Sequence record: OQ174501.1 | Reading direction: 5' to 3' (one strand) | DNA: 64,000 nucleotides | Source: Escherichia phage REP2 | Shown here: positions 4,563-48,747 of the stretch, piece by piece | Numbering within the stretch: position 1 is the stretch's first letter | Layout: the number at the start of each line of letters is the position of its first letter | Program-made: the position numbers and the translations under genes | The notes under the pieces: generated by a model | Told to the model about the DNA's origin: nothing | The model's database searches: none | The model's input: the letters and a program-made list of their open reading frames with translations, nothing else

Positions 4563-7703
<3,141 letters not shown>

Positions 7704-41900: not shown

Positions 41901-42103
41901 GCCAAACTAGTATTCTTAAAAATGCCCACTGCGAAAAGTGTGAATGGCCAGTTGTTTTTGCTTTATGTAATGATGAAATGGCTTGTGATTTCGATTATTG
42001 GTGCTATTGTTCTAATAAAGGATGCATCAATCATAAAGGTGAAGGATTTTATTCGGGATTTTATCCTTATCCAGATTTCGTTAAAGAAGGTAAACCGAAA
42101 TGA
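41876..42103 (+). CDS. Cys-rich hypothetical protein
   Basis: 75-aa ORF with CxxC...CxxxxC...CxC pattern; start uncertain. Confidence 0.45.
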   Translation: MFKGYMVMSQTSILKNAHCEKCEWPVVFALCNDEMACDFDYWCYCSNKGCINHKGEGFYSGFYPYPDFVKEGKPK

Positions 42104-42269
42104 ATAGTTCTGAGTTACAATATGAAGTGTTACGTGAACTTGATAATTTAATTGAACTCGCTGTTAATAAAGGTTTTGCCATTGGAATTGGTCAAAAAGA
42201 TACTGGTCATTTAACTATGGAAATATTTAAGCAAAAGCGAATTATTTTAAAACTCCTGGAAATTAATAT

Positions 42270-42455
42270 ATGAGTCTGAGTAAAGAACAAAAAGATAAAT
42301 TGTTTGAGCTTATCCATGAACTTCTAGATGAGCATACAGAAGCAAACACCTTTTATGATGAATACGGCCCGCTATCTCCCGAACAGCAAGAAGAATTTGC
42401 TGATCGGTTTGATAAGAAAGAAAACGAATTAATAGCTTATGTGAATATGCTTTAA
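42270..42455 (+). CDS. hypothetical protein
   Basis: 61-aa acidic ORF. Confidence 0.45.
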   Translation: MSLSKEQKDKLFELIHELLDEHTEANTFYDEYGPLSPEQQEEFADRFDKKENELIAYVNML

Positions 42456-43994: not shown

Positions 43995-44017
43995 AGTCTC
44001 CTTCGGGAGACTTTTTT
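43995..44017 (+). terminator. rho-independent terminator
   Basis: AGTCTCC-ttcg-GGAGACT followed by TTTTTT. Confidence 0.75.
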
Positions 44018-44027
44018 CATTTTACCG

Positions 44028-44057
44028 GTTTACTTTCCATTTGAGCTGTGATACTAT
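44028..44057 (+). promoter_or_regulatory. T4-type early promoter
   Basis: GTTTAC-N18-TGATACTAT, then ACAACTATC leader. Confidence 0.7.
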
Positions 44058-44085
44058 ACAACTATCGGATAAAGAGGAGAACATC

Positions 44086-44274
44086 ATGAAAATTGAAGCA
44101 CTTAATCAAGAAGGAAATATCTACGTCATCATTAATGGTGATTTTTTCGTCGACATGGATGAAGTTACTAGTGAAGAACTTGTAGAACTTCTTAAGAAAC
44201 GTTATGATATGTGTGATGAAGCTGCAACTCATATGGCGTGTGCAATATTCTCTCTTTCATATGTGGTGGAATAA
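44086..44274 (+). CDS. hypothetical protein
   Basis: 62 aa from ATG after RBS GAGGAG. Confidence 0.5.
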
Positions 44275-44477
44275 TGACTAGAATTGAACAAGCAGATAAA
44301 ATCAAGGAATTAGTGGCTTCAATTCGTAAAGCAGATGAAGAGCTGATTGACTTTGCTTGGTATTCATCGGGTATTTCGAATAAAGGCATTAAAGACTTTG
44401 AAACTAAAGTGGATAATGCTATAGAAGCGTTAGATATGTTTCTTGATGAAATTATTGATCATAATACGAGAGTTTAA
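44274..44477 (+). CDS. hypothetical protein
   Basis: 67 aa. Confidence 0.5.
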   Translation: MTRIEQADKIKELVASIRKADEELIDFAWYSSGISNKGIKDFETKVDNAIEALDMFLDEIIDHNTRV

Positions 44478-44479
44478 GT

Positions 44480-44674
44480 ATGCTAACACGTGAACAGTTT
44501 GAAAAAATCATTAAATTAGCACGTGATATTGAAATAGATTCATATCAATTAGCAGTTGAGCATTGTGAAGGATACTCATACGATGGTATAGAAGCAGCTA
44601 AAAAGGATTTGGATAAATCCAAAGCTAAGTTAGTTCAATATCTTGAAATGATTAGGTGGAATAATGAAAACTGA
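44480..44674 (+). CDS. hypothetical protein
   Basis: 64 aa. Confidence 0.5.
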   Translation: MLTREQFEKIIKLARDIEIDSYQLAVEHCEGYSYDGIEAAKKDLDKSKAKLVQYLEMIRWNNEN

Positions 44675-44839
44675 AAAGCAGATGTTTTTAATGAAGCTAA
44701 TTGAAGAATATGCTAATGCAGTTTCTGACTATGAGTATTCTGCTAGGGAAAGAGGTACAGCTTTCGCAAAGGAAGAAATGAAAATCATGGTTGATGCTCA
44801 CACAAAGCTTCAGAATTTTATTGAAAACGTCATTTAATG

Positions 44840-44869
44840 GTTTACAAGTTGGCAAGGTTATGATATAGT
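44840..44869 (+). promoter_or_regulatory. T4-type early promoter
   Basis: GTTTAC-N18-TGATATAGT. Confidence 0.6.
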
Positions 44870-45028
44870 AATCTTGTCAACTGCCAAGGAGAAGAGAATG
44901 AAAGTTTTGTTTGTTGTGTATGTGATGATTCAATATAATTATCCAATGTTTACTTATAATCTGGTGAACAACATTATTGATATTATTCAAAGGAGTGTGT
45001 AATTGTGGGTGAGTCGAAGAGAATCAAT

Positions 45029-45562
45029 ATGAAACGATTAGTATTAGAAGTTAGTCCGCTTTTTGGTGAATTAGCTATAGAAAAAGTAAATAATATGTAT
45101 CGTTTGACACAAGAAGACGATATGCTATATTTTACGCCTAGTGAAATCATTCATTTAACCCAAATTGAATATCCTTATACTGATAAAATAGTAAGCATCA
45201 ATGATGAGCACAAAATTCATTTTTATTCTTCATGCCCAGGATTTAATATTAAAAGTGAGTCAATGTGTTTATCAGTTATCCATTGGGATAGTTTTATAGA
45301 TAAGATTAAATATTTTTATTATTCTAATGAAAGAAAACATAGTTTAAAATGGCTCAAAAATTGCAATGCTATTATTACTAACGCTTGCAATCAGAATGAT
45401 GAAACTGTTTTAAACGTATCAAAATGCTATGAAGATGGTGATGTCTTAACTATTCGTCAAATTGATGATTTTCGATCGTATATTGTCACATTTACCAAAG
45501 ACGAAGCTATTGCGCTAAAGACTTATCTCGATTCTGTCATTCCAACTATGATTTCAAAGTGA
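45029..45562 (+). CDS. hypothetical protein, paralogue A
   Basis: 177 aa; C-terminus KDEAIALKTYLDSVIPTMISK. Confidence 0.55.
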   Translation: MKRLVLEVSPLFGELAIEKVNNMYRLTQEDDMLYFTPSEIIHLTQIEYPYTDKIVSINDEHKIHFYSSCPGFNIKSESMCLSVIHWDSFIDKIKYFYYSNERKHSLKWLKNCNAIITNACNQNDETVLNVSKCYEDGDVLTIRQIDDFRSYIVTFTKDEAIALKTYLDSVIPTMISK

Positions 45563-45568
45563 GGAAAT

Positions 45569-46090
45569 ATGTTTATTTCAAGTGGAAGTGGTTTAATTCG
45601 TGTTGAATTTAAAAATGACATCTTCCTTATTCAAGGAGATGATATTATTAAAATGAGTTATGATGAAATTAAGAAAATTTGTAATGCTCTTGAAAGTCAT
45701 GGAAAAGTGAACGCTGTTATTGATATTGGTGATTTATGGGTGACACTTTATGAAGTATCCGAAGGATTTAATATTGAAGATGAAAACAACATCTTAGCTA
45801 TTGATAAAAGAAGCGATTTGTTTGATGTGTTAAAAGTTTATGAACAGTCAAACGGTGGAAGAAAAGCTGTATTGATTTATCAAAAACCACATTCATGTGG
45901 AACTGCTTCAATCATTTCAGATATTGAAGATGAAACTGATACTTATATGTGTGTTTTAAAAGCTGGTGGTGACCGTCATCCGGATTTTATTTCTATTCGT
46001 CAAAACAATGGAGAAATTTCATTATCAAAATCAGAAGCTGAAGCTATGATTAAGTATTTAACAACTGTTACACCTTCAATGAAAGGATAA
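45569..46090 (+). CDS. hypothetical protein, paralogue B
   Basis: 173 aa; C-terminus KSEAEAMIKYLTTVTPSMKG matches paralogue A. Confidence 0.55.
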   Translation: MFISSGSGLIRVEFKNDIFLIQGDDIIKMSYDEIKKICNALESHGKVNAVIDIGDLWVTLYEVSEGFNIEDENNILAIDKRSDLFDVLKVYEQSNGGRKAVLIYQKPHSCGTASIISDIEDETDTYMCVLKAGGDRHPDFISIRQNNGEISLSKSEAEAMIKYLTTVTPSMKG

Positions 46091-46092
46091 TT

Positions 46093-46554
46093 ATGATTAT
46101 TAATGAAAACTCTTGGCACTATAAATTATTCAAACTGTTTAACGACGAATGGAAACGACCTAAGACACTGTGTGCATACTTTTGGTCTATTGTTATCCCT
46201 ACATTTTTCGTTTCTTTTTTCGGATGTACTATACTCGCAGGTCTAACTATTATCTGTGCAGAAATCATACAGAAATGGCTTATTTTTGGTAGTTTATGGA
46301 CTCTTCTTCCATCGGCATTTATACTTGCACTTTTGGTTGTTTTACTTATTATCGGTTCATTTGTTATTCCTGCACATTTGCGTGAAAAATATAAAGATTA
46401 TAAATGGAAAAAGGATTATGCTTTACACGTAGAAAATATTGATAGGGCGTATAAAGGTTTACCTCCTATTCAACCAAAGAAATCGGTTATCGTTGAATTT
46501 TTAAAAGCTCGTAAAGCTAAAGTATGTCCTGTTATTGAATATAAGGCTGAATGA
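46093..46554 (+). CDS. membrane protein
   Basis: 153 aa with 2-3 hydrophobic helices. Confidence 0.55.
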   Translation: MIINENSWHYKLFKLFNDEWKRPKTLCAYFWSIVIPTFFVSFFGCTILAGLTIICAEIIQKWLIFGSLWTLLPSAFILALLVVLLIIGSFVIPAHLREKYKDYKWKKDYALHVENIDRAYKGLPPIQPKKSVIVEFLKARKAKVCPVIEYKAE

Positions 46555-47564
46555 TGAAAACAGTAATGAAAAGCTATTTTGGTAGTCATCTTTATGGAAC
46601 TTCTACCCCAGAATCTGATGTAGATTTTAAAGAAATCTTTGTTCCTCCTGCTCGCGATATTCTTATCGGAAATGTTAAAGAGCATATGAGTAAAAACACT
46701 AACAACACATCATCTAAAAACACTAAAGATGATATTGACCATGAACTATACAGTCTTAAATATTTCTTTAAATTAGCAGCAGATGGTGAAACTGTAGCGT
46801 TAGATATGCTTCACACTCCACCTGAACTAGTGGTTAAATCTGATTTGCCTGATGTGTGGAAGTTTATTCAAGACAACCGTTCTCGTTTTTATACGACTAA
46901 CATGAAATCCTATTTAGGATATGTTCGCAAGCAAGCTTCTAAATACGGTGTCAAGGGTTCTCGTTTGGCTGCATTACGCGATGTATTGAAAGTAGTTAAT
47001 CAAATCCCCGAGCAATGGGTTGATTACCAAGAAGACGGTTCCATTAAGCAGCGTCGTACTAAAGTTGAAGATATTAAGCATCGTCTTCCAGAAAACGAAT
47101 TCTGTGAATGGGTGTTCCATAATCATGAGAAAACAGGTCCACAAACGTTCTACACAGTGTTGGGTCGTAAATATCAGACAACGCTTTCTCTTATTGAGCT
47201 TAAGCAGTCACTGAACAAATTAGATGCTGAATATGGTGAACGTGCTCGTAAGGCCGAAGCCAATGAAGGTATTGACTGGAAAGCTCTGAGTCATGCTTGT
47301 CGTGGTGGACTTCAACTATTGGAAATTTACAAAACTGGTGACTTGGTTTATCCACTCCAAGATGCTCCATTTATTCTCGACGTGAAGTTGGGTAAACATC
47401 CATTTAAAACAGTTCAAGAGTTTTTGGAAGATGTGGTCGATCAAGTAGAAGCAGCATCTACTGAAGCTTCTAAGAATGGTATGCCTAAAACAGTAGATAT
47501 GAGCTTTTGGAATAATTTCCTCGAACAGGTTTATCTTGAAAACCACCGAAGTTATTATAAATGA
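46551..47564 (+). CDS. nucleotidyltransferase-fold protein (Pol-beta/CD-NTase-like motif)
   Basis: 337 aa; N-terminal GSHLYGTSTPESDVDF (GS-x10-DxD) with a downstream acidic residue (DDIDHE). Confidence 0.55.
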   Translation: MMKTVMKSYFGSHLYGTSTPESDVDFKEIFVPPARDILIGNVKEHMSKNTNNTSSKNTKDDIDHELYSLKYFFKLAADGETVALDMLHTPPELVVKSDLPDVWKFIQDNRSRFYTTNMKSYLGYVRKQASKYGVKGSRLAALRDVLKVVNQIPEQWVDYQEDGSIKQRRTKVEDIKHRLPENEFCEWVFHNHEKTGPQTFYTVLGRKYQTTLSLIELKQSLNKLDAEYGERARKAEANEGIDWKALSHACRGGLQLLEIYKTGDLVYPLQDAPFILDVKLGKHPFKTVQEFLEDVVDQVEAASTEASKNGMPKTVDMSFWNNFLEQVYLENHRSYYK

Positions 47565-47565
47565 T

Positions 47566-47592
47566 AGGGAGCCTTCGGGCTCCCTTTTTTTA
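47566..47592 (+). terminator. rho-independent terminator
   Basis: AGGGAGCC-ttcg-GGCTCCCT followed by TTTTTTT. Confidence 0.8.
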
Positions 47593-47616
47593 TTTCAAAA
47601 ATTTTTTCACAAAATT

Positions 47617-47646
47617 GTTTACAAGCATAAAGCTTTATGGTACTAT
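47617..47646 (+). promoter_or_regulatory. T4-type early promoter
   Basis: GTTTAC-N18-TGGTACTAT, then ACAACTATCAACTGA leader. Confidence 0.75.
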
Positions 47647-47680
47647 ACAACTATCAACTGATACGGATTTGGAGAATAAA

Positions 47681-48649
47681 ATGAAAACTGTAACTATCAA
47701 TAAGGGTATCTACTTCGGTAAAGAAATCTCTGGAACTTTTGAGCTCTTAGGCGAATGGTTCCCAGATAATGCTCCAGTAGATGCACAAGGAGATGGTAAA
47801 GTTTTTGTTGAAATTGACGGTAAACGTCGCGGTGTTTGGGTTTACAAATCAGACATTTCATATGATGGTGTAAAAGTTGAAGAAGTTAAAGAAACGTATG
47901 AAGATATGAAAACCCGCATTAATAAAAGATTTAATGTTATGGGAATGATGACGAATGGTATTATTAACGGAAACATTCGTTCATTAATTATCTCTGGTGC
48001 GGCAGGCATTGGTAAAACGTATTCTTTAGATAAAGCTTTAAATAAAGCAAATGATATTGGATACATTGAATATAAAAGCATTAATGGTAAAATCTCTGGT
48101 ATTGGTCTTTATGAACAGCTTTGGAATAATCGTGAAGAGAATTCTGTCCTTTTGATTGATGATGTGGATGTTTTCTCTGATATGGACATTCTTAATCTTC
48201 TGAAAGCTGCTCTGGACACCGGAGAGACCCGTAAAGTCTGCTGGAGCACTGCGTCTTCTTACTTAGAAGAAAAAGGCATTGAGCGTGAGTTTGAATTTAA
48301 AGGAACGATTGTTTTTATCACAAACGTTGACATTGACCGCGAATTAGACCGTGGTACTAAACTTGCTCCACATTTACAAGCATTAGTGTCCCGCTCGGTT
48401 TATTTGGATTTGGGTGTTCACACTAATGAAGAAATTATGGTCAGGGTTGAAGATGTTATTCTTTCAACTGACATGATGCAAAAGCGCGGTCTTTCTGATG
48501 AAGAAACTTATAAAGCATTATCATGGATGAAAGTTAATGTTAATCGTTTACGCAATGTTTCACTGCGTACTGCTCTTTATCTTGCTGACTTTATTATGAC
48601 CGACAAAAACGGTTGGGAAGAAATTGCTGAGGTTACTCTTCTGAAATAA
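47681..48649 (+). CDS. P-loop (AAA-like) ATPase
   Basis: 322 aa from ATG after promoter and RBS; Walker A GAAGIGKT, Walker B LLIDDVD. Confidence 0.6.
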   Translation: MKTVTINKGIYFGKEISGTFELLGEWFPDNAPVDAQGDGKVFVEIDGKRRGVWVYKSDISYDGVKVEEVKETYEDMKTRINKRFNVMGMMTNGIINGNIRSLIISGAAGIGKTYSLDKALNKANDIGYIEYKSINGKISGIGLYEQLWNNREENSVLLIDDVDVFSDMDILNLLKAALDTGETRKVCWSTASSYLEEKGIEREFEFKGTIVFITNVDIDRELDRGTKLAPHLQALVSRSVYLDLGVHTNEEIMVRVEDVILSTDMMQKRGLSDEETYKALSWMKVNVNRLRNVSLRTALYLADFIMTDKNGWEEIAEVTLLK

Positions 48650-48747
48650 TTCATAAGAGGACTTCTATGACAAAAAGGCAGTTCAGAAATAGATTATATG
48701 GACTGCCATTAAAAAGATGACTAGAATTAAACTGGTAAATGGAGGTA

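Follow-up and report, generated by a model that had tools for sequence, protein, structure and literature searches.

Two open reading frames (ORFs) of similar size lie side by side in the genome of Escherichia phage REP2 (record OQ174501.1), and the question raised by this locus is whether they are true paralogues and, if so, whether they arose by local duplication. The stretch of DNA analysed here (hereafter the window) comprises 64,000 nucleotides of this Tequatrovirus. Over positions 44000-48700 it shows 100% identity to Escherichia phage REP3, and hundreds of other Tequatrovirus genomes are 97-99% identical here. Its + strand is the coding one and follows the T4 order regB - vs - tk - rI - mobD.5...mobD.1 - (mobD) - nrdC.11 - nrdC.10. 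The pair and its surroundings comprise the following features:

43995-44012, + strand: terminator-like hairpin after rI.-1 (consensus scan)
44841..44869, + strand: promoter-like site GTTTACA-17 nt-TATAGT, the second hexamer being preceded by TG, just 5' of the mobD.2 homologue and ORF A (consensus match only)
44898..45002, + strand: mobD.2 homologue (34 aa), directly 5' of ORF A and annotated at the equivalent position in phages HP3 and T4
45029..45562, + strand: ORF A, 177 aa from ATG, orthologue of T4 MobD.1 (y05I) by T4 identity, Pfam, PHROG 1502, and AF2 model
45569..46090, + strand: ORF B, 173 aa, deeply diverged MobD.1 paralogue by Pfam, PHROG 1502, and AF2 model
46093..46554, + strand: ORF C, 153-aa membrane protein by hydrophobicity, PHROG 944, and synteny
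46551..47564, + strand: nrdC.11 homologue, RlaP-type (DNA polymerase beta family) nucleotidyltransferase by Pfam and PHROG
47566..47585, + strand: terminator-like hairpin AGGGAGCC-TTCG-GGCTCCCT followed by a T run, directly 3' of nrdC.11 (consensus scan)
47681..48649, + strand: nrdC.10 homologue, P-loop ATPase (AAA/STAND type), belonging to the next unit

The initial annotation had reported the two ORFs (177 aa and 173 aa), a 153-aa membrane protein after them, and then an NTase-like gene, and all four are present on the + strand as described. In ORF C, aa 25-98 are strongly hydrophobic and the protein matches the PHROG 944 ‘membrane protein’ profile (E 1.5e-49), and the gene after it is an RlaP-type nucleotidyltransferase according to both Pfam (RlaP, PF10127, E 3e-11) and PHROG 388 (E 3e-138). 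From the mobD.2 homologue to nrdC.11, the genes are close-packed, being separated by 2-6 nt or overlapping by 4 nt, and the start of the nrdC.11 homologue overlaps the stop of C (ATGA). ORF A may be 185 aa long if its start is the GTG at 45005, which is preceded by AAGGAG and sits where T4 has an ATG start. The promoter-like site at 44841..44869 is one that we take to resemble T4 early promoters, and phage e11/2 has a terminator annotated at the position equivalent to 47566-47585. As far as consensus scans only can indicate, the mobD.2 homologue, A, B, C, and nrdC.11 likely form one transcription unit that starts at the 44841 site and ends at the 47566-47585 hairpin.

The first point to settle is whether the likeness of A and B is real. 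Both ORFs end in a shared C-terminal motif, which was read in each sequence as it had been described:

45497..45550, + strand: C-terminal family motif of A, KDEAIALKTYLDSVIPTM (aa 157-174; sequence read)
46028..46081, + strand: C-terminal family motif of B, KSEAEAMIKYLTTVTPSM (aa 154-171; sequence read)

The similarity is not limited to this motif. In the BLASTP alignment (E 2e-9), which pairs A 8-174 with B 3-171, 27% of positions are identical and 49% are positives, and the local alignment score of 101 compares with 30.7 ± 5.2 in 2000 shuffles of B (z 13.7), none of which reached 101. When the last ~25 residues were cut, the score was 75 against 29.5 ± 4.9 in shuffles (z 9.2). The low identity of 27%, taken alone, could hint that the resemblance is due to chance or to a short shared C-terminal peptide; testing left nothing else in favor of this explanation, and the z-score of 9.2 obtained without the motif, together with matches to both Pfam domains at E 1e-20 to 1e-39, makes it practically untenable. 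Because the similarity runs the full length of both proteins, the likeness is more than a short C-terminal stretch, and the paralogy claimed in the initial annotation holds by BLASTP, shuffling, Pfam, and PHROG. An origin of B through insertion of unrelated DNA is irreconcilable with the Pfam matches and the shuffling result and is regarded as excluded. The finding is real, if fairly ordinary, and matters little on its own.

The DNA of the two genes is 53% identical. Within the motif, 29 of 54 nt are identical (~54%, counted by eye), and synonymous codons differ. Gene conversion was rejected as the source of the shared motif, as the motif DNA is no closer than the gene-wide 53% and the synonymous codons differ. 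Since the DNA likeness of the motif is at the gene-wide level, it is selection on the protein that has kept the motif.

Profile searches confirmed both ORFs as complete two-domain members of the Pfam families T4_y05I_N and T4_y05I_C and of PHROG 1502. The N-terminal domain (PF24449; gathering score 24.9 bits) scored 134.1 bits in A (aa 4-100) and 119.6 bits in B (aa 2-95), and the C-terminal domain that follows it (PF24448; gathering score 27 bits) scored 74 bits in A (aa 105-174) and 82.7 bits in B (aa 102-171). The PHROG 1502 profile was covered whole (positions 1-178) by both A (E 6.4e-81) and B (E 6.5e-67). The MobD.1 family (T4 y05I) is small, restricted to T4-like phages, and already catalogued in Pfam and PHROGs. 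A word-index protein search reached few of its distant relatives and an exhaustive profile search was needed, which found 28 clusters in 1.84 billion representative proteins; several of these clusters are full-length two-domain proteins and many are the ~70-aa C-terminal domain alone. The family signature, (F/L)(T/S)KxEAxAL..YLxxVIP(T/S)M, is located at the extreme C-terminus of all members, the ~70-aa proteins that stand alone among them. The rest of the 64-kb window contained no further family copy and no DUF7189 gene. A, B, and C had no match in NCBIfam or PADLOC, and none to an HNH domain in Pfam.

This assignment places two ‘hypothetical protein’ genes in a known family and puts right a misannotation that is widespread, as the RefSeq name ‘molybdopterin-guanine dinucleotide biosynthesis protein MobD’ of A-type genes is a name-propagation error. 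In the literature searched, MobD.1 was named only in a review table, and nothing relevant was found on y05I or the Pfam accessions. Both A and B are annotated uninformatively or wrongly in hundreds of records.

The two ORFs differ in their relation to T4. ORF A is 86% identical to T4 MobD.1 over 99% of its length, with flanking genes colinear with those of T4, and together with its place between mobD.2 and the nrdC.11 side, as in T4, this identity marks A as the T4 mobD.1 orthologue. A-type genes occur in 726 phage records, and A is broken into fragments in T2 and fPS-90. ORF B shares with T4 MobD.1 both domains and their order, its length, and the C-terminal motif, but it is just 28% identical to T4 MobD.1 and 27-30% identical to any of the MobD.1 orthologues. 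In a neighbour-joining tree, the B sequences (the window, e11/2, and T2-like alleles) form a clade of their own with 100% bootstrap support, and T4 MobD.1 is not the closest relative of B. We regard B as a new (sub)member of the MobD.1 family. It occurs in 448 phage records, at ≥90% identity in 433 of them. As judged from these comparisons, most Tequatrovirus genomes carry B as an old second copy, T4 being without it.

What stands in the place of B in T4 is apparent from a DNA alignment. The window and T4 are nearly identical through the end of mobD.1, its stop, a GAGG ribosome-binding site, and then a short piece of B:

45569..45587, + strand: first 19 nt of B, ATGTTTATTTCAAGTGGAA, kept in T4 just 5' of the mobD cassette (DNA alignment)

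The likeness is absent after nt 19 of B and is back at the nrdC.11 start codon. The T4 interval from mobD.1 to nrdC.11 holds mobD, which encodes a free-standing HNH homing endonuclease, and T4 MobD resembles this part of the window only in the shared flanks. MobD thus fills exactly the place of B and C between mobD.1 and nrdC.11, and is unrelated in sequence to A and B, i.e., a replacing element and not a homologue. As T4 keeps the ribosome-binding site and the first six codons of B, it must once have had B, and the mobD cassette replaced B from codon 7 on, together with the membrane-protein gene C. MobD was found at ≥95% identity in only 47 phage records, whereas A-type genes occur in 726, B in 448, and C-type genes in 860, which indicates that the A-B-C arrangement is the common state and T4 the exception. 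Taken together, it is highly probable on these alignments that A is the mobD.1 orthologue, that B is an old second copy, and that mobD replaced B and C in T4.

The mobD gene of T4 represents a clear case of a free-standing homing endonuclease replacing two resident genes, as opposed to a simple insertion. A review gives the insertion site of mobD as nrdC.11/mobD.1 and lists its target as unknown (PMC2988022). The replacement junctions are mapped here to the nucleotide, which narrows the MobD target to near the mobD.1 end and B start, or near the nrdC.11 start.

The initial annotation also proposed that the pair arose by local duplication followed by divergence. A and B are true full-length paralogues, as this proposal requires, but the local duplication itself is possible and not demonstrated, because B is equally far from the single copies of other genera. 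Across T4-like phages the pair is not universal: A and B occur together in most Tequatrovirus genomes, a single copy is found in Mosigvirus, Dhakavirus, and Gaprivervirus, and T4 is without B. In RB69 (Mosigvirus), SP18 (Gaprivervirus), and dhaeg (Dhakavirus), the single MobD.1 gene is followed by the membrane ORF and nrdC.11. B is 27-30% identical to both the clade of A and RB69 and the JS98-type clade. Since B is as far from A as from the MobD.1 proteins of other genera, the split would go back at least to the time when these genera diverged, or B evolved fast, or B arrived laterally.

If B is a tandem duplicate of mobD.1 that arose inside the Tequatrovirus lineage and underwent rapid divergence, the adjacency, same orientation, and common length and domain order of A and B would be readily explained, as would the finding of B-type sequences in Tequatrovirus only; with other genera being single-copy, a gain in one lineage is also the most parsimonious. 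The two proteins, however, are just 27% identical and the DNA of their genes 53%, the distance of B from A is no smaller than that from the JS98-type proteins, and bootstrap support for the node that unites the non-B sequences is only 44.5% (neighbour-joining). Moreover, B is slow-evolving within Tequatrovirus (433/448 records at ≥90% identity), which argues against continuing fast divergence. Recent tandem duplication is a genuine possibility that we would hold only tentatively.

Another explanation is that B is a xenologue that came from an unsampled T4-like lineage via recombination, or that the duplication is older than the genera and B was later lost from some of them. The B clade is deep, T2 carries a divergent B allele (57% identical), and alleles are exchanged between genera: e11/2 has an A with 69% identity to RB69 MobD.1 and only 49% to the A of the window, and a B with 94% identity to the B of the window. 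Judging from these identities, the mobD.1 locus swaps alleles across genera, e11/2 having an RB69-like A and a window-like B. On the other hand, no B-type single-copy donor was found among the 1.84 billion representatives or in 50,697 phage records, and an ancient duplication requires several independent losses. An ancient duplication with losses or a lateral arrival of B fits the data at least as well as a local duplication, and we regard this pair of explanations as having a nearly even chance of being correct.

Natural gene fusions are also documented at the mobD.1 locus. A viable-looking natural A::B fusion gene (P0011) is joined at a 10-nt microhomology that is present in both ORFs:

45398..45407, + strand: GATGAAACTG in A, left copy of the 10-nt microhomology at the joint of P0011
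45929..45938, + strand: GATGAAACTG in B, right copy of the 10-nt microhomology at the joint of P0011

Such fusions show that the domains are interchangeable.

Structure prediction gave the same three-unit layout for A and B. In the AF2 model of A, pLDDT is >90 in the N-domain and 53-63 in the C-domain (low confidence), and the models of B have a mean pLDDT of 85.6, with all five in agreement. According to the secondary-structure strings, both proteins are predicted to consist of three units in a row, each of 3-5 strands and then a helix; the strings of both models would be compatible with four antiparallel strands followed by a helix, although unit 1 of B has just three strands. With hhalign, unit 1 (aa 1-50) matched the C-domain profile at a probability of 90% (E 1.4e-6, 28 columns), and the alignment centers on h-h-x-Q-(E/D)-D-D ... 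(T/S)-x-x-E-helix. The unit-1 profile also matched the stand-alone C-domain protein of Yersinia phage TG1 (E 1.5e-3), which was not part of the unit-1 alignment. Unit 2, which serves as a negative control, had no detectable homology to units 1 and 3. The internal-repeat signal is short (27-38 aligned columns) and, with plain HMMER, marginal (independent E-values of 0.09-2.8), and for this reason the homology of units 1 and 3 is graded as likely, and not as proven.

Units 1 and 3 are likely also related to two groups of small phage proteins. One group consists of the stand-alone T4_y05I_C proteins (PHROG 7763 and 10804; Tegunavirus, Winklervirus, and others), and the other of the DUF7189 (PF23819) proteins of RB69-, JS98-, and SP18-type phages, which share the ~70-aa unit with A and B at the profile level only. 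The ~68-aa DUF7189 proteins, which are encoded just 5' of MobD.1 in RB69, SP18, and dhaeg, matched unit 1 at E 3e-5 and the C-domain at E 5e-5 (profile level), and Pfam DUF7189 matched unit 1 of B below threshold (E 1.5e-4). Both groups have the Q-(D/E)-D ... (T/S)xxE helix signature in common with A and B and are found in the same locus, directly 5' of the membrane ORF or of MobD.1, but are single units, whereas A and B have three units per chain. Profile-level evidence thus points to one ancestral unit shared by the MobD.1 family and these two families of ~70-aa phage proteins. If units 1 and 3 are homologous, the family probably grew via duplication and fusion of one small unit.

The predicted units bear on what A and B may do. 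PUR-alpha contains three beta4-alpha repeats, two of which are paired within the chain while the third is free to pair between chains. The units of A and B, with likewise about four strands and then a helix, resemble those of PC4, Whirly, and PUR-alpha proteins, which is a resemblance and not membership. A and B could accordingly be transcription factors that bind DNA or RNA and have a Whirly/PC4/PUR-like fold of beta4-alpha units, as the Pfam descriptions and the three predicted beta4-alpha-like units would suggest. The best compact Foldseek matches of B, i.e., 2nvn (probability 0.94, E 0.07, TM 0.39), 2it9 (0.84, E 0.1), and SsgB 6slc (0.63, E 0.28), point in the same direction; 2nvn and 2it9 are presumably filed with PC4 and Whirly in SCOP.

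Several results speak against such a role. Foldseek searches of the PDB with both models gave no match at E < 0.01 and TM-scores of ≤ 0.39, the top 50 matches included no PC4, Whirly, or PUR-alpha entry, and searches of BFVD returned family members only. Profile searches against PDB sequences found no solved-structure relative of A or B, Pfam gave no match to PC4, Whirly, or PurA at E ≤ 1, and neither a helix-turn-helix nor another DNA-binding domain was found by Pfam. Literature searches on 2IT9, 2NVN, and DUF1818 returned nothing usable. Furthermore, all full-length members of the family are acidic (pI 4.1-5.8, net charge -3 to -27, calculated for the whole protein), unlike PC4- or Whirly-type nucleic-acid binders, which argues for protein binding rather than direct nucleic-acid binding. 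A transcription-factor role is therefore unlikely. The SsgB trimer has been described as ‘whirly’-shaped (PMC8061694), and this Whirly-like protein shows that such folds can serve protein-protein roles. The Pfam label ‘putative transcription factor’, which may be based on a Whirly/PC4-like resemblance, is at odds with a protein-binding role.

The locus belongs to a non-essential accessory region of T4-like phages, in agreement with the initial annotation of an accessory locus, as T4 tolerates a deletion from nrdC.11 to mobD.3 (PMC9825161). This deletion, the split A of T2 and fPS-90, and the A::B fusion indicate that the genes of the locus are dispensable in the laboratory. As a tentative proposal, for which our confidence is low, A and B may be acidic, dispensable early accessory proteins that work through protein, not DNA, binding. 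With similarly low confidence, the motif-bearing C-terminal unit might be a pairing module, with A and B forming homo- or hetero-oligomers or docking on a shared partner. The high confidence given above to the identity and history of the genes does not extend to this protein-binding mechanism, which is considerably more doubtful.

A wider model joins these elements: a single phage-specific ~70-aa beta-sheet-plus-helix unit with PC4/PUR-like pairing would build the MobD.1 family, the T4_y05I_C proteins, and DUF7189, and an A/B hetero-oligomer formed via the C-terminal units would act with the membrane protein and the RlaP-type nucleotidyltransferase in an early function such as RNA repair or counter-defence, partly lost in T4 to mobD. 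We consider this model quite improbable as a whole.

The gene order of the locus bears on the last part of that model, namely that A, B, C, and the NrdC.11 nucleotidyltransferase form an obligate functional system, e.g., for RNA repair or counter-defence. Four genera retain the order of MobD.1-family gene, membrane ORF, and nucleotidyltransferase, neighbouring genes abut or overlap, and one promoter-like site and one terminator bracket them. Against this, T4 is without B and C and yet keeps A and the nucleotidyltransferase, and A, B, and C matched nothing in PADLOC or NCBIfam. The ORF C family occurs in 860 phage records, 132 of them from Klebsiella phages, whereas none of the organism groups listed for the MobD.1 search are Klebsiella phages. 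The loss of B and C in T4 and the presence of the C family in Klebsiella phages make an obligate system unlikely, and since the type phage T4 is without B and C, work on T4 alone cannot reveal the role of the complete gene set. Phage CHI14 (Winklervirus) shows both sides of this arrangement, as three other ORFs separate its membrane gene from the nucleotidyltransferase, while a C-domain-only ORF still abuts the membrane ORF directly on its 5' side.

Counterparts of the two adjoining genes A (45029-45562, the orthologue of T4 mobD.1) and B (45569-46090, its deeply diverged paralogue) are joined in a natural A::B fusion gene, which encodes the 179-aa protein P0011 (L008:4001-4540, and also L009, L010, and L011) and is present in four assemblies, each from different sequencing runs. 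The fusion gene is single-copy, and directly 3' of it lie the membrane ORF and then the RlaP nucleotidyltransferase. Approximately the first 125 codons come from an A-type gene and approximately the last 55 from a B-type gene, and the junction is exactly a 10-nt microhomology, GATGAAACTG, common to A and B:

Window 45398-45407, + strand: copy of the microhomology within A
Window 45929-45938, + strand: copy of the microhomology within B

Another kind of fusion is represented by the metagenomic protein P0067 (120 aa), which combines a DUF7189 part with a JS98-type MobD.1 part. Its N-terminal part, MSLYDPSGCSEDGVIALVPETLAGSD, corresponds to approximately residues 1-26 of a DUF7189 protein, and the remainder comprises the end of unit 2 and the C-domain of the MobD.1 layout.

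Upstream of the homing-endonuclease gene mobD, T4 retains the ribosome-binding site and the first six codons of B (window 45560-45587 versus about 5529-5560 of the T4 locus, L002). Based on a reading of the T4 sequence aligned with the window, a short ORF of approximately 23 codons appears to begin with this remnant and to stop near the mobD start.

Two strongly differing A alleles, about 49% identical, occur among Tequatrovirus genomes (L003:3498-4040 in phage e11/2 versus window 45029-45562), whereas B remains 94% identical between the same two phages. With its 69% identity to RB69 MobD.1, the e11/2-type allele suggests that alleles are exchanged between genera at this locus while B stays conserved. 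T2 (LC348380/MH751506) and Yersinia phage fPS-90 (NC_055723) carry gene A as two or three separate fragments, and the B of T2 is divergent (57% identical); these observations fit with dispensability of the two genes.

The A protein may in fact be 185 aa instead of 177 aa, as a GTG at window 45005 (stretch 45005-45028) is preceded by AAGGAG at 9-nt spacing and matches the position of the T4 ATG start; the 185-aa form is called in many database entries. For nrdC.10, the mechanical 362-aa ORF from window 47561 reads through a terminator-like hairpin at 47566-47585 (region 47561-47680), and the ATG at window 47681 (322 aa) is the counterpart of the annotated start in related phages.

The small genes around tk and rI (57-67 aa), including tk.1, tk.2, mobD.4, mobD.3, mobD.2a, and others, nearly all match one Pfam family, DUF7438, and are a further, larger array of adjoining paralogues in the A/B region:

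Window 42100-42455: DUF7438 small genes
Window 44087-44837: DUF7438 small genes
L008:637-1007: DUF7438 small genes, fusion-bearing assembly
L008:2818-3731: DUF7438 small genes, same assembly

RefSeq records (e.g., NC_041919 [HP3], NC_030953, and NC_054922) give the label [quoted passage not shown] to A-type genes and to several of the small mobD.x genes, and the label "thioredoxin" to nrdC.x genes. Both labels look like name-propagation errors originating from T4 gene symbols.
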